From Shigella phage ChubbyThor, in the sequence record OL615013: a stretch of DNA of 64,000 nucleotides, one strand, 5' to 3'. The notes under the pieces were generated by a model that worked only from the letters and a program-made list of their open reading frames with translations, was not told the DNA's origin and did not search any database. Shown here piece after piece: positions 525 to 57,563 of this stretch. The position numbers and the translations under genes were made by a program. The first letter of the stretch is position 1. Each line of letters begins with the position of its first letter.

Positions 525-905
525 CTACCCCACCAAAAATTTATTGTATTCCTGAGCATTACGCTGCATGAGGGTTACAAGGATATCCCCTGTCACCTCA
601 GTGAACAAGTCATTTTCTTTCAAATTCACAAACATCAGACGTAATGGTTTCTTCAATATATCGGTCACGAAAGACAGGCGGGGTTCGCCGTCCACTTCGT
701 TGATGGCAACCTTGCCGAACCGGAATTGAACGCCACGGAATTTGCCAGAAGTGATCTTGATGATCGCCAGCTGATCAGCACCAGGGTCGATGATTGTGTA
801 GTTATTGGGGGAGTTGCCTCCCCCTCCGTTGTCACTCGGATGTGTTGATAACATGGTCCATTTGCTCCAGCATGTTCGCAGGCATAACAGTACCGTTAGA
901 AACAC
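525..905 (-). CDS. hypothetical protein; start uncertain (internal Met at ~854 or later)
   Basis: ORF track 126 aa; 5' part overlaps uvsX 3' end and contains a GC hairpin; no recognisable motif. Confidence 0.3.
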   Translation of the reverse strand: MFLTVLLCLRTCWSKWTMLSTHPSDNGGGGNSPNNYTIIDPGADQLAIIKITSGKFRGVQFRFGKVAINEVDGEPRLSFVTDILKKPLRLMFVNLKENDLFTEVTGDILVTLMQRNAQEYNKFLVG

Positions 906-1917
906 CGAACATCTTCTTCACGTCATCGGCGAAGTCGACATTCTCCAGCAGCGGATACCAGAAATCATCATCCATCTGACGCTTCTGATATTTCTTTTCC
1001 TTCTCAGGATCGAAGCCGCCCTTGGCTGTACGCACATACCAGCCGGAAGACGGCATATCAACGTAACCCAGAGCACGAGCGATCTCAAGCAGGCCGCTCC
1101 AGCGGTCAATACCACCGTCGTACAGCACCGTCACAGGGAGCTTGGCTTTCTCTTTGACATGGCGACCTTTCATGATGCCGATGTTGAAGTTCCAGCCCAG
1201 CAGATCTTTGTCTTCCTTCACCTGAGAACGGGTGATGAACCAGATCAGGTTAGACGACAGGAAGCCCTGCTTGCCGCCTTTGATGTTAGGCTCGGCATAG
1301 ACGTTGCCGATCTCGTCATAGTAGGAGTTGATCCACACCAGAACGAGTTCTTTGCTGTTGATTTCGGGAGTAATGACACGCCAGAAGCTGTTGAGGGCAC
1401 GGGCACGGGTCATATCCTGTGTATCTTTACCAGCGATAGCGTCTTCAACTTCTTTGGTAGACGGCAACTGGCTGATTGAGTCGATGAACACGATGACCTT
1501 GTCACCCTTCTTGACTTCCTGAAGGATTTGCAACAGGCGGATCTTGGTCTGCTCAACGTTGTCAATCGGCACGTACAGGACGCGATCCATGTCAATACCC
1601 ATAGACGTCCAGTAATCGGCGTTGGCACCTTTCTCAGAGTCCGCGAAGATACACAGGGCATCAGGGAACTTGTCCATATACGCCTTGACATCTACCAGAC
1701 CGAACATCGTTTTGAAGGTACGGGAATCACCCACCATCATCTTGATACCGGAGATCAGGCCGCCGTCAATACGCCCGGACCAGGCGATGTCGATCAGGGG
1801 AATACCAGTAGAACAGATGATAGACGGTTCCAGAGCGTCTGATTGGGACAGCACTGAAGCCTGGTCGTCATGTTTCTTGGCAACCTTCAGCATGCGGTCC
1901 ATTAATGAACTGGCCAT
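832..1917 (-). CDS. uvsX: UvsX RecA-like recombinase
   Basis: 361 aa; RecA-fold ATPase core (GIPLIDIAWSGRIDGG..., VIVFIDSISQL, acidic C-tail) collinear with T4 UvsX. Confidence 0.9.
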   Translation of the reverse strand: MASSLMDRMLKVAKKHDDQASVLSQSDALEPSIICSTGIPLIDIAWSGRIDGGLISGIKMMVGDSRTFKTMFGLVDVKAYMDKFPDALCIFADSEKGANADYWTSMGIDMDRVLYVPIDNVEQTKIRLLQILQEVKKGDKVIVFIDSISQLPSTKEVEDAIAGKDTQDMTRARALNSFWRVITPEINSKELVLVWINSYYDEIGNVYAEPNIKGGKQGFLSSNLIWFITRSQVKEDKDLLGWNFNIGIMKGRHVKEKAKLPVTVLYDGGIDRWSGLLEIARALGYVDMPSSGWYVRTAKGGFDPEKEKKYQKRQMDDDFWYPLLENVDFADDVKKMFGVSNGTVMPANMLEQMDHVINTSE

Positions 1918-5287: not shown

Positions 5288-5318
5288 AAAGGAGCTGCTA
5301 TTATAGCAGCCCCTTCAT
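5288..5318 (-). terminator. intrinsic terminator hairpin (GCUGCUAUAAUAGCAGC) followed by U-run on minus-strand RNA
   Basis: Perfect 7-bp palindrome gctgcta-tta-tagcagc between stop of 5344..6210 gene and kinase start; U-tract on minus strand. Confidence 0.55.
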
Positions 5319-7986: not shown

Positions 7987-8931
7987 GTGGAAGACTATCG
8001 CAATTTTATCACACAGATGTTACAGCGGGGCTTGTCACGCAAGAACCGCTTCAGAGTGACCATCCCTCTGCCACCAGGGATCTTTGACTCCAATGCCACT
8101 CTGGCTAATGACGGAAAGGCGTACAGCACCAATTCATCTTTCGGTGACTTGTTTAAGCAGTCAGCCCGTATTGTAAACGCTTTCTTTGGAGGGACAAACC
8201 AGACTTCCCGTTCCCTTCAGATGATGTGTATGGTTGCCTCATTGCCGGGGGTTGGTATTGACACCACCCCAATGACGAACAACGGCAACCACATCAAGAT
8301 GCCGAACAACAAGTCCAACGTCGACCTCGACCTGTCATTCTTGTTGGCTAATGACTATTACGAGAAGTCTGTGATGGACAAGTGGAAGAGTCTGATCTTT
8401 GATCCATACACTACCAAGATGGGCTATTACGAAGACTTCGTCACCGACATCTGCATTGAGCAACTTGATACTGAAGATCAGGTGGTCCACCGCGTCTACA
8501 TCGTCGAGGCTCATCCGATCAACTTCAGTTCCATCGAGTTGGACAAAGGTGCTACAGATCAGTTCAACCAATACAACATCTCTTTCTCTTACAACAAAGT
8601 GCTATCGGAGACAGAATATGAAACACGCAGCCTTTCCAGCGATTTTCTTCCTCTCGGTATTGCTGACGCTCTTACCAGTGGTGACTGGGAAACTGCGGCC
8701 TCAAAAGCCGGACAGCTTTATCGGAAAGTCAAAGAAGGAAACTTCACAGGAGAGGCTCTCCTGGCTTACAAACAGCTTGACCAACTTGTAAACAACCTGG
8801 CTGGGATCAGCCTACAGGACTTCGAGCGCATCTCGGTGGGTATCTCTCGTGACATCATGGGCAACGATAACCTGACGGCGGCGGAGAAGACAAGCCTGTT
8901 GGGGATATTGCAAGATGTGATGGGCAAATAA
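7987..8931 (+). CDS. virion structural protein, tail-tube-family baseplate protein (gp48/gp54-like), late gene
   Basis: 314 aa; N-terminal NRFRVTIPLPPG resembles the opening beta-strand motif of T4 tail-tube family; late promoter upstream; plus-strand island. Confidence 0.4.
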   Translation: MEDYRNFITQMLQRGLSRKNRFRVTIPLPPGIFDSNATLANDGKAYSTNSSFGDLFKQSARIVNAFFGGTNQTSRSLQMMCMVASLPGVGIDTTPMTNNGNHIKMPNNKSNVDLDLSFLLANDYYEKSVMDKWKSLIFDPYTTKMGYYEDFVTDICIEQLDTEDQVVHRVYIVEAHPINFSSIELDKGATDQFNQYNISFSYNKVLSETEYETRSLSSDFLPLGIADALTSGDWETAASKAGQLYRKVKEGNFTGEALLAYKQLDQLVNNLAGISLQDFERISVGISRDIMGNDNLTAAEKTSLLGILQDVMGK

Positions 8932-8955
8932 AAAGCCCTCCGAAGAGGGCTTTTT
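8932..8955. terminator. bidirectional intrinsic terminator (aaaAGCCCTCcgaaGAGGGCTttttt)
   Basis: 9-bp GC stem with A-run 5' and T-run 3', between convergent genes ending at 8931 (+) and 8958 (-). Confidence 0.75.
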
Positions 8956-10071: not shown

Positions 10072-10089
10072 CGGGGTAATTATACCCCG
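10072..10089 (-). repeat. palindromic stem-loop element, family A copy 1 (CGGGGTAAT-TATACCCCG) in gp32 5' leader
   Basis: 7-bp stem cggggta/taccccg; same element recurs at ~45764 and ~46325. Confidence 0.6.
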
Positions 10090-22522: not shown

Positions 22523-22544
22523 AAAAAGGCCGTTTCCGGCCTTT
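22523..22544 (-). terminator. intrinsic terminator (GGCCGgaaaCGGCC + U-run on minus RNA)
   Basis: Between endolysin stop and phoH start. Confidence 0.6.
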
Positions 22545-23411: not shown

Positions 23412-23711
23412 CTACATCGATTCGAGCATGGAGTTATATTTGGCTATCTTTCGACCAAAGCCTTGCTTCATGCCATTATAAGCACCGACCGCAGTGTCAT
23501 ACCCCTTTGTGGACATGTACTGATTTATGTCGTCGGTGCGCGCTAACCAATGACCTTCCTGCTGCCTGTAAATCAGAGTCAGGATAGAAGACTCGGACGT
23601 TACCATGATTCTGCCCGTAATCCTGATTACGGATGATACCCAGACTTTGCCCGTCACTTCTTTAAGGTGGGCGCAAGAGGCTTCGGCCAATTGCTCAAGA
23701 GTCATTTTCAT
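23412..23711 (-). CDS. hypothetical protein
   Basis: ORF track 99 aa. Confidence 0.4.
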   Translation of the reverse strand: MKMTLEQLAEASCAHLKEVTGKVWVSSVIRITGRIMVTSESSILTLIYRQQEGHWLARTDDINQYMSTKGYDTAVGAYNGMKQGFGRKIAKYNSMLESM

Positions 23712-23893
23712 CTTGCCACCACAGGCATGACTTCGTTGAAGGACGTACGAACTTCAGTGTCGTACCCGTATTTTTCCAGGACTGCTAACATCGCCTGCTC
23801 GAGTTCCTCTTGGAACTGAGGGAAGACTTTGTTCGGAATGCGGTCAGCAACCCAGAGAGCGCCTGAAGAGGCTTGAATGACAGCGCGGGGCAT
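23708..23893 (-). CDS. hypothetical protein
   Basis: ORF track 61 aa. Confidence 0.35.
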   Translation of the reverse strand: MPRAVIQASSGALWVADRIPNKVFPQFQEELEQAMLAVLEKYGYDTEVRTSFNEVMPVVAR

Positions 23894-23922: not shown

Positions 23923-23940
23923 AGGGGAGTTGCCTCCCCT
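23923..23940 (-). repeat. stem-loop element family B copy (AGGGGAG-GCAA-CUCCCCU on minus RNA, GNRA tetraloop)
   Basis: Identical 18-mer also at ~49833; near-identical at ~807. Confidence 0.6.
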
Positions 23941-23954
23941 GTTATGCGTCTGGC

Positions 23955-24443
23955 TTAGGCCAGTTTGCTCACCAGAGCTTCAACTGCGTCGGCGCTCAGT
24001 TTACCCATTTTGACGTACTGGGTTTTGGCTTCGCCGCCTGCTGCTTTCACGATGTCTTCGTTTGCGTAGCCTTTCTTAGGGAAGACCATCACAGAGAAGG
24101 AACCGTTGTTCAGCGGGTTCAGCTGGATGCGACCTTTACCAACTACGATGGTGCCGTAAGTTTCGGTGTTCGCTTCGACGACGTGGATGTCGTGACCCAG
24201 GTCTTTCAGCATGCCAACTTTGTCGGCGGTCTTAGCAACCACAGCTTTGTCAACCACAACCTGCTCTACCAGGGTGAAGCCGTTAGTCGCTTTCACTTTG
24301 CCGTTCAGCAGGTTCATGAAGGAAGTTTTACCACCAGTGAAGCCAGCTGCCTGAGCGATGCGGAACATTTCAACTTTAGCAACTTCGGTGTTCAGTTCGA
24401 AAGAGATGGTGCCGTTGGTGATCAGAGTTTTGGTAGTAGCCAT
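23955..24443 (-). CDS. hypothetical protein, probably highly expressed early product
   Basis: ORF track 23955..24479; start at MATTKT (~24443); strong promoter and leader upstream. Confidence 0.5.
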   Translation of the reverse strand: MATTKTLITNGTISFELNTEVAKVEMFRIAQAAGFTGGKTSFMNLLNGKVKATNGFTLVEQVVVDKAVVAKTADKVGMLKDLGHDIHVVEANTETYGTIVVGKGRIQLNPLNNGSFSVMVFPKKGYANEDIVKAAGGEAKTQYVKMGKLSADAVEALVSKLA

Positions 24444-24516
24444 GATGTAATTCCTCATAATGTAGTTGGTTCGTTTCACTTTTCATTCGGCGGTGTGTTG
24501 CCGCCCTATGTGAACT

Positions 24517-24546
24517 ATAATAGTGCATCATTATTGAAGAGTAAAG
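24517..24546 (-). promoter_or_regulatory. sigma70/T4-early-type promoter (TTTACT-17 nt-TATTAT) with AT-rich UP-like tract
   Basis: Minus-strand motif ~80 nt upstream of the 24443 start. Confidence 0.5.
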
Positions 24547-24582
24547 TCTTTTTCAATAAATTTTTAAAATAATTTTGAAGTA

Positions 24583-24610
24583 TTTTAAAAGGCCTCATTC
24601 GACGAGGCCT
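24583..24610 (-). terminator. intrinsic terminator (AGGCCUCgucgaauGAGGCCU + UUUU)
   Basis: Follows stop of 24639..24845 gene. Confidence 0.55.
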
Positions 24611-29917: not shown

Positions 29918-29943
29918 AAGAGAGCCGAAGCTCTCTTGTCAGA

Positions 29944-30422: not shown

Positions 30423-31061
30423 TTACGGCGTTGGGTTCACCACAGGAATATGGAATCTGATCCCGGCGATGATATCCTTCAGCTGAGGCTTCCAACCATC
30501 CACCAAACGGGGGAGAGCGATAGCACCAGGCTGAACTAAAATGATGTCGCTGCCTGTGATATTGTGCTGAGGGAACTGGGCAAGGTACTGCTCCATGGTG
30601 ACACCCTCATCAATCAGAACCGCACCGACGTCAGACGATGCGTAGGTTGCACCCAGACCGTCAACGCCCCACGCCAAGATGCCCCAGTCAGGGATGTTGG
30701 CTTCAGATGTGATGGTGAATCCAAACACGGTGTTCAGGGAGGTGAAGGAATAGACATCGTGAGTTATGTCATACACCAGATACCCCTTGGCCAGCATATC
30801 GGCAAAGATCGCGTCCGTATCTCCCGCCGCCGGAGTTGGCACAGAAAACAACAGCTCGCCCTCAGGAGGGGCAGGATACGTGCCGAGGGCATAGAGGCAC
30901 CATGCATCAATGCACTTCTTAATGAATGCCTCGGGTGCGACGTAATCGGCAAGGCGCACAGTCCCCGAGTACTCGGATACGATGATGCCTTCCTTCGCGC
31001 CCTGTAGAGCGATGAAGACCAAGATATGTTCATATCCGGTCTGAGATGGAGTGATGTTCAT
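30423..31061 (-). CDS. hypothetical protein
   Basis: ORF track 30423..31157; start at MNITPSQ (~31061) abutting upstream stop. Confidence 0.45.
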   Translation of the reverse strand: MNITPSQTGYEHILVFIALQGAKEGIIVSEYSGTVRLADYVAPEAFIKKCIDAWCLYALGTYPAPPEGELLFSVPTPAAGDTDAIFADMLAKGYLVYDITHDVYSFTSLNTVFGFTITSEANIPDWGILAWGVDGLGATYASSDVGAVLIDEGVTMEQYLAQFPQHNITGSDIILVQPGAIALPRLVDGWKPQLKDIIAGIRFHIPVVNPTP

Positions 31062-31675
31062 TATCTTGTCCTCTTCAGTTTCTCTATCGTGCGCTTGTTC
31101 ATGGCGATCACCCGAGGATCTACCTCGGAGATGGTCCGGCCTTTGAAGGACACACATTTCTGAAGATATTTAGCTTTCTTCACGACGTCAGCGGCATAAG
31201 CGTTCGATGCGGGATTACGGGCGAAGCCAGCATTGTAAGAGGAGAGGGATTTGCGTACATTCTGCTTGTGATATGTCAGCCAGAACTGCATCTCATCGAG
31301 GGCGGCTTGCGCGGCATATTCTTGGTCGGTCAACAACTTGATGGCGACATTGGCATAGCACTTGCGATTCTTACAACCTTCGCGATCACCAACTGTCTTC
31401 ACCTTGTTCTGAAAGGCTCCCATGTTGGCCGCCTTGAGACCGTAGCGCATTGACACTACATCTTCACCAGCACGGCTCTCTCGCCAAGATATGGCAGCCA
31501 GGGTGTAACCAAGATCTTGTGTCTTGCCTATGTGATAGGCAGTTGCCAGCGTATTAAGTTGTTGCTCGGAGAAATCATAAACACATTGACTTGTATTTTG
31601 GGAAGCGTGCACATTCCCGCTGGCAATGGTAAAGGTCACGGACAAGGCCATGGCCTTCAACGTTGTCATCGTCAT
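31061..31675 (-). CDS. secreted soluble lytic transglycosylase-like protein
   Basis: 204 aa; signal peptide MTMTTLKAMALSVTFTIASGNVHA; SLT motifs ISWRESRAG and SSYNAGFARN. Confidence 0.65.
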   Translation of the reverse strand: MTMTTLKAMALSVTFTIASGNVHASQNTSQCVYDFSEQQLNTLATAYHIGKTQDLGYTLAAISWRESRAGEDVVSMRYGLKAANMGAFQNKVKTVGDREGCKNRKCYANVAIKLLTDQEYAAQAALDEMQFWLTYHKQNVRKSLSSYNAGFARNPASNAYAADVVKKAKYLQKCVSFKGRTISEVDPRVIAMNKRTIEKLKRTR

Positions 31676-41557: not shown

Positions 41558-41614
41558 GATATAGTTCTCTCAAATGAAAGGGCGACCTTATGATAAGCCG
41601 CCCTGGATTATTGA

Positions 41615-45763: not shown

Positions 45764-45785
45764 GGCGGGGTAATCATACCCCGCC
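45764..45785 (-). repeat. palindromic stem-loop element family A copy 2 (GGCGGGGTAAT-CA-TACCCCGCC)
   Basis: 9-bp stem; near-identical to copies at ~10072 and ~46325. Confidence 0.65.
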
Positions 45786-46298: not shown

Positions 46299-46322
46299 GA
46301 TATAGTTCCTGCATTTCAAATA
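46299..46322 (-). promoter_or_regulatory. conserved translation-initiation leader (TTTGAAATGCAGGAACTATATC-ATG)
   Basis: Same leader family. Confidence 0.55.
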
Positions 46323-46324
46323 GA

Positions 46325-46342
46325 CGGGGTAATCATACCCCG
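46325..46342 (-). repeat. palindromic stem-loop element family A copy 3 (CGGGGTAAT-CA-TACCCCG)
   Basis: Identical core to copy 2. Confidence 0.65.
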
Positions 46343-46357
46343 CCCAAAGTTATAGAA

Positions 46358-47047: not shown

Positions 47048-47089
47048 GCTACTTCTCCCAAAGAAAGGCGGGTTGCCCCGCCCGTTGGA

Positions 47090-49294
47090 TTAGATTTTGA
47101 TCTCTTTCTCTGCCAGTTCGGCAGTGACCTTGTACTTCACGCCATCCACTTCAACTTCCATGGTTGACTCTTCCAGGTCGAGGTCGGTGAACCAGCCGTG
47201 GCCAGCAACGATACCATACACCACTTTAGACAGCGTCTTGTTCAAGGCGCGGACTTCAGTGATGGCCGCCTTGGCAGCAGCGTCGATCCAGTTTTCGATC
47301 AGCTGTTTCTGTACGGCTTCAGGCACGGCAGTGATCGCAGGAGACTTCACGAATGCTTCGTATTCCTTCAGAGCATTGGCGATGAACAAGTCACCCGCAT
47401 TGAGTTTCTTGTTCTCGGCAATCTTCTTCTGTACTGCCGCGATGCTAGGCAGAGAAGACGCTCCAGCGATCTTAACGTTCAGCTCACGGCTCATGTAGAC
47501 ATCCGTGGAGTCCTTCAGTTCGGTCTTCGGTGAGAAGCCGTAATCGCGGATGCCGTAGGAGGACAGGAACTCTGCCGCCTCAGCGCCGTACTGTACTGCC
47601 AGGCCTTTGGCGTTACCTTTGCCAACCAGTTCATCACGGAAGAACTTCAGCACCTTCTGCTTGCCTTTCAGGGCTTCCAGACGGACATTATCCGCAAAGA
47701 ACTGAGCAGCACTGATGTTCTTGACCATGGCGCGGTTGACCAGCGGTACGCTTTCCAGGTTCAGGACAAACACTTCCGGACCACCGAACACATGGACGCC
47801 CATCTGGCACAGATTGGTTACAACTTCAACATCAGCCCTGAACGGCAGAGTCTTCACGTTGATGATGCCGTCTTTGACGATGGTGTAGTTGCGCCACTGG
47901 AAAGTATCCAGTTCTTCAGGCAGACCGAACTTCTTCTGCACGAACTCCGGAATCGCCACAGTGCCGTGCTGGACAGTGCGTACACTGATATTAGGGCGTT
48001 CGGAGTTATAGACCAAATCGCTGATTGGCACAACACCCAGATCGTTGTTAGGTTCGAACGTCGGGTTCCACTCTTCGTGCTCGGCCAGCTTGAGAGCCAG
48101 GGCTTTGCGCTCTTCTTTGGACTCGGCGTTCGCGATCTGTTCTGCCAGCTTGTCTTCGGTATCGTCCAGTTTCTGAGCCGTACCGCGACCGATGCTCTTG
48201 TAGGAGAACATAGGATGTTTGGTAGCAACACACACGCCAGCTTCAGCCAGATACGTCAGCACGTCAACGACGGTCGTCGCATCTTCAGCTGGAACCAGGT
48301 CATAATCAATACCGTCAACGCCGCGCAGCTGGTCATCAACGATGGCCTGGGTCAGATCAACTTTGATGTTGGAGTAGTCCTGCTTGGTGAAGCAGTTGCT
48401 GTACTGTTTGATGAAGCGAACGTCACCCGTTTTCTTCAGGGCAGCCCACACCAGGTCTGCGTCCATGATGTGTACGCCGTAGAACGCCAGCACGTATGCC
48501 GCCTGGATGTCCGCCAGCGCATCAAGCTGGTCGATCATGTTAGGATTGACGACCCACAGCTTCGTGACGCTCTCAGGGATGCTCACGTGGCCGATAGGAT
48601 GGTCTTCATCCGGCTGTACCGCCAGCACAGTTGCTACGCCGTTTTCAACGTAGATGGCATGATCATACAGCAACGGAACATCAACAACCACTTTCGGCAC
48701 CGAGGACTTCAGTACGTTTTCCAGCTCGGTCTGATATTCGGTCTGGCCTTCGGCGAACACGTGAGTCGCGCCGGAACGTTCAGACATCAGAGCCAGCAGT
48801 TCGCGGTTACAGTACCAGCCGTATTCGATGAATGTGACGTTGTCGAAAGCGGAAGGAAGTTTTTCGGCGGTCTCCAGGATCTCATTGGAGCGCCAGCAGT
48901 TGTCATAACCATCGGTCATGAACGCCAGGTTGTTGACGTAGCCGGGTTTCTTCAGGTCACGCGCAGTATCCATCGCCAGTTTCAATGGTTCAACAAAACC
49001 AGTACAGCCGGATGGTTGTAGGAAGCGGTCGATCAGTTTGTTCAGCTCGCTCAGGTCAGATGCTGCACTAACCTGACGGCCAGCGAACACAGTACCAAAG
49101 TCGCCACGGGATGAGAAATACAGAACACTCACAGTATCTTCCGGTTTCACCAGAGAAGGCAGGTTCTCCTTCAGATGCTTACGGACTTCAGGGAGCGCAC
49201 GGTACATCGAATAAGAGATGTCCACAACGATTACATGGTTGGACGGGGCAGCAGTCGCAACCGCATTCTTAAATTCTAATGATTCAATCATCGT
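47090..49294 (-). CDS. von Willebrand factor A (vWA) domain protein, large
   Basis: ORF track 47090..49375; start MIESLEF; MIDAS motif VVDISYSM (DxSxS) near N-terminus; rest unassigned. Confidence 0.55.
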   Translation of the reverse strand, partial: TMIESLEFKNAVATAAPSNHVIVVDISYSMYRALPEVRKHLKENLPSLVKPEDTVSVLYFSSRGDFGTVFAGRQVSAASDLSELNKLIDRFLQPSGCTGFVEPLKLAMDTARDLKKPGYVNNLAFMTDGYDNCWRSNEILETAEKLPSAFDNVTFIEYGWYCNRELLALMSERSGATHVFAEGQTEYQTELENVLKSSVPKVVVDVPLLYDHAIYVENGVATVLAVQPDEDHPIGHVSIPESVTKLWVVNPNMIDQLDALADIQAAYVLAFYGVHIMDADLVWAALKKTGDVRFIKQYSNCFTKQDYSNIKVDLTQAIVDDQLRGVDGIDYDLVPAEDATTVVDVLTYLAEAGVCVATKHPMFSYKSIGRGTAQKLDDTEDKLAEQIANAESKEERKALALKLAEHEEWNPTFEPNNDLGVVPISDLVYNSERPNISVRTVQHGTVAIPEFVQKKFGLPEELDTFQWRNYTIVKDGIINVKTLPFRADVEVVTNLCQMGVHVFGGPEVFVLNLESVPLVNRAMVKNISAAQFFADNVRLEALKGKQKVLKFFRDELVGKGNAKGLAVQYGAEAAEFLSSYGIRDYGFSPKTELKDSTDVYMSRELNVKIAGASSLPSIAAVQKKIAENKKLNAGDLFIANALKEYEAFVKSPAITAVPEAVQKQLIENWIDAAAKAAITEVRALNKTLSKVVYGIVAGHGWFTDLDLEESTMEVEVDGVKYKVTAELAEKEIKI

Positions 49295-49511
49295 TATTGC
49301 CTTCTTCAGGGTTGTCTTCGGCCTCACCTTCCGGCTTGACCAGCATATGTTCAAGGAAATCGCGATTGAGTTCAATCTGACTCATCAGCGTTTCCGATGG
49401 GCTAAAGCGGCGGTCGAGGTTGTCGACGCCCGCACGTTCAAATGGTTTGGCCATATCAGCCGCCCTTGACTTCAGTAACGCCAGGGATCGACCGCAGGGC
49501 TTGGCGAACAT
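49284..49511 (-). CDS. small acidic protein (start uncertain)
   Basis: ORF track 75 aa; overlaps vWA gene start. Confidence 0.3.
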   Translation of the reverse strand: MFAKPCGRSLALLKSRAADMAKPFERAGVDNLDRRFSPSETLMSQIELNRDFLEHMLVKPEGEAEDNPEEGNNDD

Positions 49512-49815
49512 CGGCGACCTTGTCCTTCTCCACAGTCACCACAATGAACGAGAAGTTCCTTTGTTTACGCCATTTCTTGAAGTGTGAGACAAGCTGTACT
49601 TCGTTTTCTTCTGCGCCGCTTCCCCCTTCTACAGGGACGTAAACGACACCAGATTCAATAACTACATCGGCGTCATCGGGGATATCTGCGTCTACATCTT
49701 CGCGATATTCACCATTGACTTTGATGCAATGATCGTCGTGCCAAGCGCCGTTCACCCAATATTCATCATCGTGGTAGTACGCATTGAACTCGACACCTTT
49801 CATCTTCACAGACAT
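49456..49815 (-). CDS. hypothetical acidic protein
   Basis: ORF track 119 aa. Confidence 0.45.
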   Translation of the reverse strand: MSVKMKGVEFNAYYHDDEYWVNGAWHDDHCIKVNGEYREDVDADIPDDADVVIESGVVYVPVEGGSGAEENEVQLVSHFKKWRKQRNFSFIVVTVEKDKVADVRQALRSIPGVTEVKGG

Positions 49816-49832: not shown

Positions 49833-49850
49833 AGGGGAGTTGCCTCCCCT
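49833..49850 (-). repeat. stem-loop element family B copy (AGGGGAG-GCAA-CUCCCCU)
   Basis: Identical 18-mer to ~23923. Confidence 0.6.
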
Positions 49851-49857
49851 TCGGTTA

Positions 49858-51522
49858 TCAGATTTGTGATGCCAGTTCTACTACGAGAGGAGCGGCACGG
49901 ACACGCGCATCTTCCAGAGTTTGAGTGTTGAAGAACTTGCCGTCACGATACACCAGCTGGTGCTGGTTGTCGGCGTCTTGCACCTGATCAAAGGTGATAC
50001 CGTCAACCAACACTAGTTTACCCTGAGAGTCTTTAATGACTTTAAGGAAACCACGCGCAGACTTTTTAGTCCCGCCTTTGTCGGTCTTCGGCTCTTTGAA
50101 GATCTCACGGAATTCGCCGTTCACCTTACCAGCCGTTGCTTTCACCGCCGTGCCAGTACTGTCACGGGTGTTCATCTGGTAGGTGTAGGAACCGATACCG
50201 AACACCACGTTGATGGAAGCGAAGTTCCGGCCAGCCAGACGACTAAAGATCTGGTCTTCACGTGCCAGGGTGATGGAGTCACCGTAGATCAGACCGATGT
50301 GTTCGTCCAACAGGAAGTGGCCAGTTTCAGTTTGAGTACCGCCAAAGATCTCCCACAGGCGCTGGATAGAGCCGACTGCTTCAGAACGGCTGATGATATT
50401 ACGGTCGTCTGCCATCAGAGAGTTGATCGTGCCTTCGCCTGTGATCAGGTGATAGGTGTTCGTCTCTTCGATGTGAATGACTTCAGTGCTGCTAGACACG
50501 CCGCTGATGTTCAGCGTGGCGCGGTCTTTGAACCCCTCAATGCGGTAGCCGCCGACGATATGAACTGGGTCGCCCGAGTCAGGGCGGATCACGACTTTAC
50601 CGTTACGCGCCATGATAATGTCTTTCAGGCGAGGGAGATAGTCGTCGATGACCTGCCAGTAATCCCACGCATCAGACACGATGCTGACGATGCCATCAGG
50701 ATACACGTCCTGCACCAGGCGGCGGAAGGTTTCGAATTCGCCATCCTTCGTACCCATACACATCACGGCGTGTTCGGTAGCCGCAACAGAACCAGCAACG
50801 ACATAGTCTTCGTCGATGTCTGCGCCATAATACTCTTCTACGAAGTCCAGGGCAGGGTTGGTATCGGTGCCTTTGAAGAACACCAGATGACCGGAACCGG
50901 AAGACGCCGCGTCATGCCATCCACTCATGCCACGGAAGGAGAAGTCGTGGCCTTGGTAGTCGATGAACCAATGGTCCGGCGACACGCCTGTAGCGAGGGC
51001 AGCTTTCACCATCAGTGCCTTGTAATGCAGGGCGATGGTGGCGTTCGTCATCGGCTTCCAGATCTCAGAGCTGAACACAGTCTCCAGATAGTTGGTCAGC
51101 CAGTAGAACTCCGGCAGGGTGTTGAACATCACATACACCGGAACGCCATATGGGCACATGGTGCCTTCAGGCAGAGCACGGACTTCGATAGGCAGGTAGC
51201 CGAGGTCATGCAGGGCTTCAATATGCTCTGTGCCGACGCGGCCTGGACCCAGGACTTTGTTCATGCGACGGGCATACTTCTTCAACACCTTGGCCTTTGG
51301 GCGCTGGAAGAATGCTTCGTCAAACAGTTCGTGGAACCAGGTCATGAAGCCCTGGATGCCCCAGACCACCACGCCGTTCTTCGGCAGGTGAGAGTTGAAC
51401 AGTTTGTTGGAGCGCGGAGTTCCGTTGGAGAACACCAGCTCGCTGCCTTCAGGGAACTGATAGATGTGCCCTGATTTGTAGAAGTCGATTGCATGGATTG
51501 GGTCTAAGTGGCGCATGCTCAT
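49858..51522 (-). CDS. nicotinamide phosphoribosyltransferase-family enzyme (NadV/Nampt-like; candidate nicotinamide ADP-ribose transferase of an NAD+ reconstitution pathway)
   Basis: 554 aa; Nampt blocks HDFSFRGMSG, GTDTNPALD, VVIRPDSGDP; 4-nt overlap with upstream Prs-like gene. Confidence 0.8.
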   Translation of the reverse strand: MSMRHLDPIHAIDFYKSGHIYQFPEGSELVFSNGTPRSNKLFNSHLPKNGVVVWGIQGFMTWFHELFDEAFFQRPKAKVLKKYARRMNKVLGPGRVGTEHIEALHDLGYLPIEVRALPEGTMCPYGVPVYVMFNTLPEFYWLTNYLETVFSSEIWKPMTNATIALHYKALMVKAALATGVSPDHWFIDYQGHDFSFRGMSGWHDAASSGSGHLVFFKGTDTNPALDFVEEYYGADIDEDYVVAGSVAATEHAVMCMGTKDGEFETFRRLVQDVYPDGIVSIVSDAWDYWQVIDDYLPRLKDIIMARNGKVVIRPDSGDPVHIVGGYRIEGFKDRATLNISGVSSSTEVIHIEETNTYHLITGEGTINSLMADDRNIISRSEAVGSIQRLWEIFGGTQTETGHFLLDEHIGLIYGDSITLAREDQIFSRLAGRNFASINVVFGIGSYTYQMNTRDSTGTAVKATAGKVNGEFREIFKEPKTDKGGTKKSARGFLKVIKDSQGKLVLVDGITFDQVQDADNQHQLVYRDGKFFNTQTLEDARVRAAPLVVELASQI

Positions 51523-52373: not shown

Positions 52374-52483
52374 AATGTAGCCTCATGGTGTATTGTACAG
52401 CCGTATTATACTGTGATGCACAAATTGAAACACCCAGCAAATATACTGGGCGTCATTGATATTGAAGGAGTTTGATAATTCAG

Positions 52484-57510: not shown

Positions 57511-57540
57511 ACGAAAAACAGAGGCCATTATAGCCTCTGT
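57511..57540 (-). terminator. intrinsic terminator (ACAGAGGCuauaaugGCCUCUGU + UUUUU)
   Basis: Between stop at 57564 and start at 57494. Confidence 0.65.
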
Positions 57541-57563
57541 TGTTTAGTGAATAACTGTATATC

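Follow-up and report, generated by a model that had tools for sequence, protein, structure and literature searches.

Why should a short G-rich RNA hairpin stand directly behind the stop codon of three different genes of one phage? The question arises from Shigella phage ChubbyThor (OL615013), in which an earlier note had picked out two exact copies and one near-exact copy of a GNRA-capped stem and proposed a part in termination or attenuation. The window analyzed here, a stretch of 64,000 nucleotides with a G+C content of 50.5%, is 97-99% identical to the Agtrevirus phages (Ackermannviridae) P46FS4, Ag3, MK-13, SKML-39, and Gloob.

Three copies of one hairpin behind three stop codons

All three copies are present on the minus (coding) strand where the earlier note had put them. 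AGGGGAGGCAACTCCCCT occurs exactly at 23923-23940 and at 49833-49850, and GGGGGAGGCAACTCCCCC, the third copy, lies at 807-824, its 2 differences from the others amounting to a compensatory change of the basal pair from A-U to G-C. The copies and the genes and signals around them are as follows.

807..824, minus strand: site 1, GGGGGAG-GCAA-CUCCCCC, 7 nt 3' of the uvsX stop and within the downstream gene
832..1917, minus strand: uvsX (RecA-like recombinase), upstream of site 1, from the ORF list and the UvsX/RecA-like annotation of relatives
525..854, minus strand: 109-aa gene after uvsX, containing site 1, with its probable start at ATG 854-852 and a 23-nt overlap with uvsX
23923..23940, minus strand: site 2, AGGGGAG-GCAA-CUCCCCU, 14 nt past the stop of the 162/174-aa gene, next ATG 29 nt on
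23955..24479, minus strand: gene upstream of site 2, 174 aa from GTG or 162 aa from ATG 24443 (Ag3 annotation)
24517..24556, minus strand: sigma-70-like promoter ahead of that gene, Ag3 counterpart Porf100
24590-24610, minus strand: hairpin and T-run preceding that promoter, Ag3 counterpart Torf101
23708..23893, minus strand: 61-aa gene directly downstream of site 2, first in a variable cluster of small ORFs
49833..49850, minus strand: site 3, AGGGGAG-GCAA-CUCCCCU, 7 nt past the TGA of the Nampt-like gene, next ATG 17 nt on
49858..51522, minus strand: Nampt/NAPRTase-family gene upstream of site 3 (Pfam PF04095, E = 6.7e-32)
49456..49815, minus strand: 119-aa gene downstream of site 3, with a different gene there in some relatives

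The stop codons preceding the hairpins are TGA 832-834, TAA 23955-23957, and TGA 49858-49860 at sites 1, 2, and 3, and the measured spacings of 7, 14, and 7 nt fall within the 7-15 nt that had been claimed. The stem is indeed 7 bp long and capped by GCAA, but it is not made of G/C pairs throughout as described: an internal A-U pair is present in all three copies, and in two of them the basal pair is A-U as well. Each hairpin has a purine-only, G-rich 5' arm and a C-rich 3' arm. The energies at sites 1, 2, and 3 are -14.6, -12.9, and -12.9 kcal/mol, and when the flanks are folded along with it, the MFE and centroid structures alike contain the hairpin at 3/3 sites.

A chance origin of the three copies is ruled out by dinucleotide-preserving shuffles of the window (n = 100), which gave 0 matches even with up to 3 mismatches allowed. 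The relaxed pattern GGGGAG-N4-CTCCCC matches the window at these three sites only, against an expectation of 0.09. No Rfam family matches: a covariance-model search of the window returned nothing at gathering score, and near the three sites it gave matches at chance level only (E of 0.5 or more).

Stable hairpins are common at gene ends in this DNA: about 30 genes of the window end in one of -10 kcal/mol or lower, many with UUCG or GNRA tetraloops. Others in the window, for example at 8930-8955, 22525-22544, and 29918-29937, have A/U-rich flanks and resemble canonical or bidirectional terminators, and sites 1-3 are without such flanks. At 47066-47083 on the minus strand, 6 nt past the stop of ORF 47090..49375, stands a fourth hairpin capped by GCAA, whose stem is not that of the family (GGGCGGG-GCAA-CCCGCCU). 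Behind it comes UUCUUUGGG, a reasonable U-tail such as the family copies lack, and the hairpin is the counterpart of Torf144 in Ag3.

The surroundings of site 2 have features of their own. With the sigma-70-like promoter in front and the site-2 hairpin behind, the 162/174-aa gene is bracketed by a promoter and a hairpin. A small 5'-UTR hairpin, GGCGG-CAACACA-CCGCC, also lies ahead of it at 24489-24505 on the minus strand, and the whole forms a compact unit in the order hairpin and T-run, promoter, 5'-UTR hairpin, gene, and site-2 hairpin. The cluster of small ORFs that follows (23412-23893, minus strand) is hyperplastic among relatives, which gain or lose a 38-40-aa CxxC...CxxC ORF between the site-2 hairpin and the 61/62-aa gene. 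A 65-aa "MTAYEMC..." ORF is inserted or deleted at the same place, and behind the 61/62-aa gene unrelated versions of a 92-101-aa gene are substituted for one another.

Conservation in place across the Ackermannviridae

Relatives were collected by way of the three upstream proteins. The comparative genomics that the earlier note had suggested as a check finds each site kept at its orthologous position in four genera (Agtrevirus, Limestonevirus, Kuttervirus, and Taipeivirus), and this conservation persists though the flanks, and even the downstream genes, change. At site 2, the hairpin is present in 19/19 relatives from the four genera, with a basal pair of A-U, G-U, or G-C and a loop of GCAA or GAAA; one Kuttervirus lineage has the shifted variant AAGGGGGA-AACC-UCCCCCUU. 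At site 1, GGGGGAG/CUCCCCC is kept in 18 of the 20 relatives under the loops GCAA, GAGA, GUGA, GUAA, GUGG, and UCAC. The two most distant relatives there carry compensated stems, GGGGAGGG-GAAG-CCCUCCCC and GGGGGAC-UACUC-GUCCCCC (as DNA, GGGGAGGG/CCCTCCCC and GGGGGAC/GTCCCCC). At site 3, the stem is kept with GCAA, GAGA, GAAA, or GGAA, and two distant relatives have a different hairpin at the position.

Over these 52 orthologous instances the loop is a GNRA tetraloop in 39, in six variants (GAGA 13, GAAA 12, GCAA 11, and GUGA, GUAA, and GGAA 1 each), and it is the class, on the RNA strand, that is conserved rather than one sequence. Over the 28 distinct sequences, pairing extends to 97.4% of the stem cells, and A-U, G-C, and G-U account for 11, 11, and 2 of the basal pairs. 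Away from the basal pair the stem hardly varies, so support from covariation is modest.

Gloob, at 99.4% identity, has five copies in its complete genome. Its extra ones lie after gp6, on the plus strand, and after gp189, the latter (AAGGGGAG-GAAA-CUCCCCUU, 146140-146159) being followed by the U-tail UCUUUUGG. In 5/5 Gloob copies the GNRA loop is on the coding strand, including the one copy on the opposite DNA strand, and at the three sites of the window Gloob has the loops GCAA, GAAA, and GAGA.

The repeated "family" of the earlier note thus survives as a set of recurring GNRA hairpins of the sense-strand RNA behind stop codons, but not as a set of recent duplicates, the copies being conserved in place. 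Since the GNRA loop at a given site changes between close relatives, the match of two window copies at 18/18 positions is for the most part a chance agreement in loop variant over a stem that is conserved; by the variant frequencies, the probability of three identical loops is roughly 0.1. Gene conversion unifying the loops to GCAA is unneeded, GAGA, GAAA, and GCAA being about equally common among the orthologues. A mobile repeat of the REP/MITE kind, or a recent duplication, is ruled out by the unrelated flanks and by the occupation of each locus in nearly all relatives.

Part of this family has been published before under another description. Table S2 of Anany et al. 2011 (PMC3121705; Virol J 8:242) gives 40 predicted rho-independent terminators of Shigella phage phiSboM-AG3 (Ag3), among which Torf100 (gggggaggaaactcccctccttatt) is the orthologue of site 2, Torf149 (ggggaggcaactcccctgtttt) is the orthologue of site 3, and Torf009 (ggggaggaaactcccctattt) is a further copy of the same hairpin family from outside the window. 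The site-1 copy at uvsX is absent from that table. The Ag3 terminators were predicted with MFOLD and WebGeSTer, their loop variants differ from those of the window, and the paper is silent on the shared stem, the GNRA drift, and the missing U-tracts.

A hairpin inside the gene after uvsX

The uvsX copy does lie within the predicted ORF 525..905, as had been noticed, and the doubt that this cast on the start of the ORF was partly justified: GTG 905 is probably the wrong start, but the hairpin is still inside the ORF when it is read from ATG 854. In 20/20 relatives an ATG lies in frame 20 nt ahead of the uvsX stop (17 nt ahead of it in L160), and it is kept as xAT-G although the UvsX residue encoded there varies between H, N, and D. 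The annotated starts of CBA120 orf067 and Klebsiella phage May gp072 coincide with this overlapping ATG; the Gloob annotation of the same gene starts at the GTG equivalent to 905. On the grounds of the family-wide conservation and the CBA120 and May annotations we prefer the former, and the gene after uvsX most likely starts at ATG 854-852 rather than at GTG 905. The sequence downstream of the hairpin is clearly coding (NYxIIDPGxDQLxII...), and between the hairpin and this conserved protein sequence there is no start codon. A Pfam search with the 109-aa protein (525..854) gave no match.

Read from ATG 854, the hairpin makes up codons 11-16 (G G G N S P). In 15 distinct sequences the fourfold-degenerate codons of the stem, GGG, GGA, UCC, and CCC, have zero variation at the third position, and variation within the hairpin is restricted to the nucleotides of the loop, while the fourfold codons just past the hairpin are all variable, with entropies of 0.57-0.92 bits. 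We read this pattern as direct evidence that site 1 is an RNA structure constraining the synonymous positions of a coding sequence.

Recoding at the end of uvsX, whether by read-through, +1 frameshift, or bypass, was considered and ruled out. There is no slippery codon and none for landing, the GAG-TGA at the uvsX end having no matching in-frame landing codon. A recoding stimulator is also ruled out by the unconserved type of the stop, TGA in the window and TAA in most relatives, and by the conserved ATG that the downstream gene has of its own.

The same hairpin in other viruses and in cells

The exact 18-mer of sites 2 and 3 has at least 120 matches in IMG/VR viral contigs, and the matches listed represent at least 87 distinct flank contexts, on contigs of 27-60% G+C and with unrelated flanks. 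Among the 87 listed viral contexts, 58 place the 18-mer only 3' of a sense gene and 1 only antisense, with 18 between convergent genes, and in 49/87 the following 8 nt contain 5 T or more. In cellular genomes (596 Gb) it occurs 59 times, where a random 18-mer would be expected about 17 times (2 x 5.96e11 / 4^18), in sense orientation 27 times versus 3 times antisense, and with U-tails in 30 of 55 contexts. It is not a bacterial repeat family.

As controls we used GCAA-capped hairpins of 7 bp that matched the 18-mer in base composition. A permuted purine arm (AGGAGGG/CCCTCCT) had 65 viral matches, swapped arms 12, and mixed G/C arms 8. Phages thus generally favor purines in the 5' arm and pyrimidines in the 3' arm of such hairpins, a polarity that is marked in the viral contigs (at least 120 and 65, against 12 and 8). 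The stem of sites 2 and 3 is a popular solution of this kind, at which they have arrived many times over by convergence.

Terminators without U-tracts, or protected 3' ends?

At 3/3 sites a gene is followed, on the transcribed strand, by a GC-rich hairpin, and the most familiar explanation would be that these are efficient canonical Rho-independent terminators ending transcription units, as the Ag3 annotation implies. Like canonical intrinsic terminators, the window hairpins have a GC-rich stem and a stable tetraloop and lie on the sense strand, just past a stop, and orthologues were predicted as terminators in Ag3 (Torf100, Torf149, and Torf009). Relatives at site 3 have GUUUUG after the stem, the same core is joined to a real U-tract at other loci, and the gene upstream of site 2 has its own promoter. 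The tails that follow the stems in the window, however, are AAUAACUA, CUCAUUCA, and GUUUCGAG, whose first 8 nt contain 2, 3, and 3 U, short of the roughly 5 or more in 8 nt that make a U-tract, and hairpin-plus-U (consensus terminator) scans of the window flagged none of the three copies. With no U-tract at any of them, efficient intrinsic termination is unlikely. The copies also differ from canonical terminators in having no A-tract and no promoter behind. We found no promoter-like site between a hairpin and the next gene, only spacers of 17-29 nt with a Shine-Dalgarno sequence (SD), so the downstream genes would have to be reached by read-through. It counts further against canonical terminators that site 1 lies within an essential-looking reading frame and that, across relatives, the hairpin is conserved and the composition of its tail is not. 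We therefore consider this explanation unlikely. The termination or attenuation proposed at the outset retains its basis in sense-strand GNRA hairpins right after stops, but given the missing U-tract a leaky or protective role fits better.

Our preferred explanation, to which we give a probability of about 0.6, is that the hairpins are intra-operon elements that form or protect the mRNA 3' end of the upstream message. Each hairpin would define and protect that 3' end within a string of co-directional genes, and it could do so by either of two routes or by both operating together. A minority of RNA polymerases may stop at the hairpin, a weak and leaky event for want of a U-tract, or transcripts may be ended or cut further downstream and then trimmed by 3'->5' exonucleases (PNPase, RNase II/R) up to the hairpin. 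With U-tracts missing from 3/3 copies, the termination route may contribute little. The expected outcome would be that the UvsX, promoter-proximal 162/174-aa early protein, and Nampt cistrons accumulate above the genes behind them. At site 1, ribosomes on the downstream gene would have to melt the hairpin, and the effect there could be sensitive to translation.

That these hairpins belong to the 3'-end/terminator class is suggested by the occurrence of the same core with a U-tail elsewhere, both in Gloob at 146140-146159 and in 49/87 of the listed viral contexts, and the 3'-end reading is supported by terminator predictors having picked up the Ag3 orthologues. What the analysis itself shows is the sequence and its fold, the conservation in place, a loop that drifts yet stays GNRA, the strand specificity, the placement with respect to stops and SDs, and the missing U-tract. 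A literature search found no transcript-end maps (Term-seq or RNA-seq) for Ackermannviridae, and that the hairpins mark RNA 3' ends, and by which route, we infer. Counting against this reading is site 1, where a 3' end would truncate the mRNA of the next gene after codon 16.

A close parallel for a protected end comes from E. coli, where Rho-dependent transcripts end precisely at stable stem-loops that lack a U-tract and shield them from PNPase and RNase II (Dar & Sorek 2018, NAR 46:6797, PMC6061677). The window hairpins are likewise stable and not followed by U-rich sequence, and the role proposed is the same, an exonuclease barrier fixing a precise 3' end. In E. coli, however, a rut site lies immediately downstream, whereas in the window the C>G skew is inconsistent and the RNA is translated. 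Downstream of site 2 the difference (C-G)/80 nt reaches the 90th percentile, a weak C>G skew; at site 1 it is at the 84th percentile in the first window of 80 nt and near the median past it; and at site 3 the sequence is G-rich, at the 1st-5th percentile at 3 of 4 offsets and at the 26th at the other. Composition gives no support to a route of Rho termination followed by trimming.

Tuerk et al. (in PNAS in 1988) reportedly described intercistronic C(UUCG)G tetraloop hairpins in phage T4, and Newbury et al. in 1987 are said to have described REP-type intra-operon stabilizers. Both kinds were proposed to stabilize the upstream message and to aid termination. The window hairpins resemble them in being very stable and in standing between cistrons, and the window also has UUCG-capped hairpins. 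They differ in their loop class, GNRA, in sharing one specific, conserved stem that occurs only about five times in a genome, and in being known from sequence.

Other readings of the same features

The position of the hairpins could instead point to translation, the hairpin behind the stop insulating the next ribosome-binding site or steering the terminating ribosomes. At uvsX, ribosomes could be steered back to the ATG 20 nt upstream, or elongation could be tuned. The tight, conserved spacing to the stop (7 nt behind uvsX and the Nampt-like gene, 4-8 nt in the majority of orthologues), the SD within 5-20 nt after the hairpin at sites 2 and 3, the placement of the site-1 hairpin 27 nt past the conserved overlapping start codon, and the SD-like GGAGG that the 5' arm and the first base of the loop always spell would all suit such devices. 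But no fold has the hairpin including or pairing with the downstream SD or start codon, and an alternative in which the 3' arm pairs with that SD reaches about 4 bp at best, appears in none of the folds, and was rejected. The geometry is also inconsistent, with the next start upstream of the hairpin at site 1 and downstream of it at sites 2 and 3, and with a site-2 spacer of 14 nt in Agtrevirus and 18 nt in L160, and in many other contexts this hairpin, followed by a U-tract, serves as a plain terminator. Translational devices are in our view quite unlikely. Recognition of the GGGGAG/CUCCCC stem by a protein of the phage or of the host (an antiterminator, RNA chaperone, or nuclease guide, for instance) would account for a stem that is almost invariant over genera and five loci and that has retained its internal A-U pair, though drift to G-C via G-U is easy. 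This invariance exceeds what stability alone demands and so leaves room for sequence-specific recognition. The CBA120 paper (PMC3184105) reports that early and middle regulation in the ViI-like family is not understood and that anti-termination has been suggested, and the LIMEstone paper leaves the regulation similarly unexplained; the two papers give predicted terminators or none. A protein site is difficult to reconcile with a loop that drifts freely within GNRA and becomes AACC, UCAC, or GUGG in some lineages, or with the identical hairpin in a large number of unrelated phages and bacteria that have no such protein in common. The permuted purine-arm hairpin, too, is common, with 65 viral matches, which suggests that a hairpin type is preferred and not one sequence, and the "RegB" label of a relative lacks Pfam support. 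As a general explanation such sites appear very unlikely. A related reading, in which RGGGGAG-GNRA-CUCCCCY would be a sequence-specific module of the Ackermannviridae (for example the target of an antiterminator or RNA-binding factor) and the uvsX copy possibly a translation-sensitive attenuator, we regard as a long shot. If it were true, the uvsX copy would set the ratio of UvsX to the downstream protein and the gp41-type helicase.

A role at the level of DNA, as dispersed repeats of a mobile element, as recombination cassettes, or as cruciform or single-stranded DNA signals, is the least probable of the explanations considered, and we would give it hardly any weight. It has in its favor two copies identical at 18/18 positions in one genome and a gene content that differs among relatives just downstream of sites 2 and 3. 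Against it, the flanks have no similarity, terminal repeats and target duplications are absent, and every site is ancient and fixed in position. The sense-strand bias of the GNRA loop (5/5 in Gloob, 58 versus 1 in the listed viral contexts) argues for a role at the RNA level. Among cassettes of this kind are the promoter-early stem-loops (PeSLs) of T4-type phages, in which a terminator stem-loop is joined to an early sigma-70 promoter and flanks exchanged segments (Arbiol 2010, PMC2839356; Comeau 2014, PMC4122927). The window hairpins are like PeSLs in being repeated intergenic stem-loops that border variable gene cassettes, but both defining features fail: no promoter follows the stem-loop, and the indels have no second hairpin copy at their boundary. 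At site 2 the indels among relatives begin after the hairpin and SD, and no second copy bounds them. We accordingly rejected identity with PeSLs.

A second class of intergenic hairpin, with a -10-like hexamer (TATAAT three times, TATGAT twice, TATCAT, and TATATT) in its loop or upper stem, was noticed in the window at the following positions.

5288-5316, 10072-10089, 41579-41604, 45764-45785, 46321-46346, 52429-52454, and 57517-57541, minus strand: hairpins with a -10-like hexamer

These look like composite terminator/promoter (PeSL-like) elements and, with TATAAT in the loop, fit the PeSL description better than the GNRA hairpins do. Ag3 offers a likeness in its early promoter Porf067, which overlaps the terminator Torf069.

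A connection with the GGAG nuclease RegB was also considered; RNA structure is known to protect GGAG from this enzyme (PMC3014915). In Gloob, gp95, the orthologue of the window gene at 31061-31675 (minus strand), is annotated "putative endoribonuclease RegB." For the product of 31061-31675 Pfam gives only a sub-threshold match to an SLT transglycosylase (E = 3.7e-4, below gathering score). With that label unsupported and the window orthologue giving this weak SLT match only, we discarded a link to a RegB-type nuclease.

Implications for annotation and gene expression in ViI-like phages

The hairpins are a real, conserved RNA-level element of a well-known and ordinary kind, the terminator-like 3'-end hairpin, and for sites 2 and 3 the Ag3 counterparts had appeared earlier in a list of predicted terminators (Anany 2011). 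What is new is that the U-tract is missing, so that the label "terminator" probably claims too much; that the GNRA loops drift on a stem common to all, a feature both family-wide and convergent; and that the uvsX copy is embedded in the next gene, which starts at the conserved overlapping ATG.

The practical value of these results lies mainly in annotation and housekeeping. About five hairpins in each ViI-like phage genome share one conserved RNA-level stem, their label as "rho-independent terminators" is shaky in the face of the missing U-tract, and the start of the gene after uvsX is corrected, with the copy inside it providing a clean example of RNA structure limiting synonymous sites in a coding sequence. 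The ViI-like phage family has few recognizable promoters and no known middle-mode regulators (PMC3184105). If the hairpins set intra-operon 3' ends, they would help to explain graded expression along its long gene strings.
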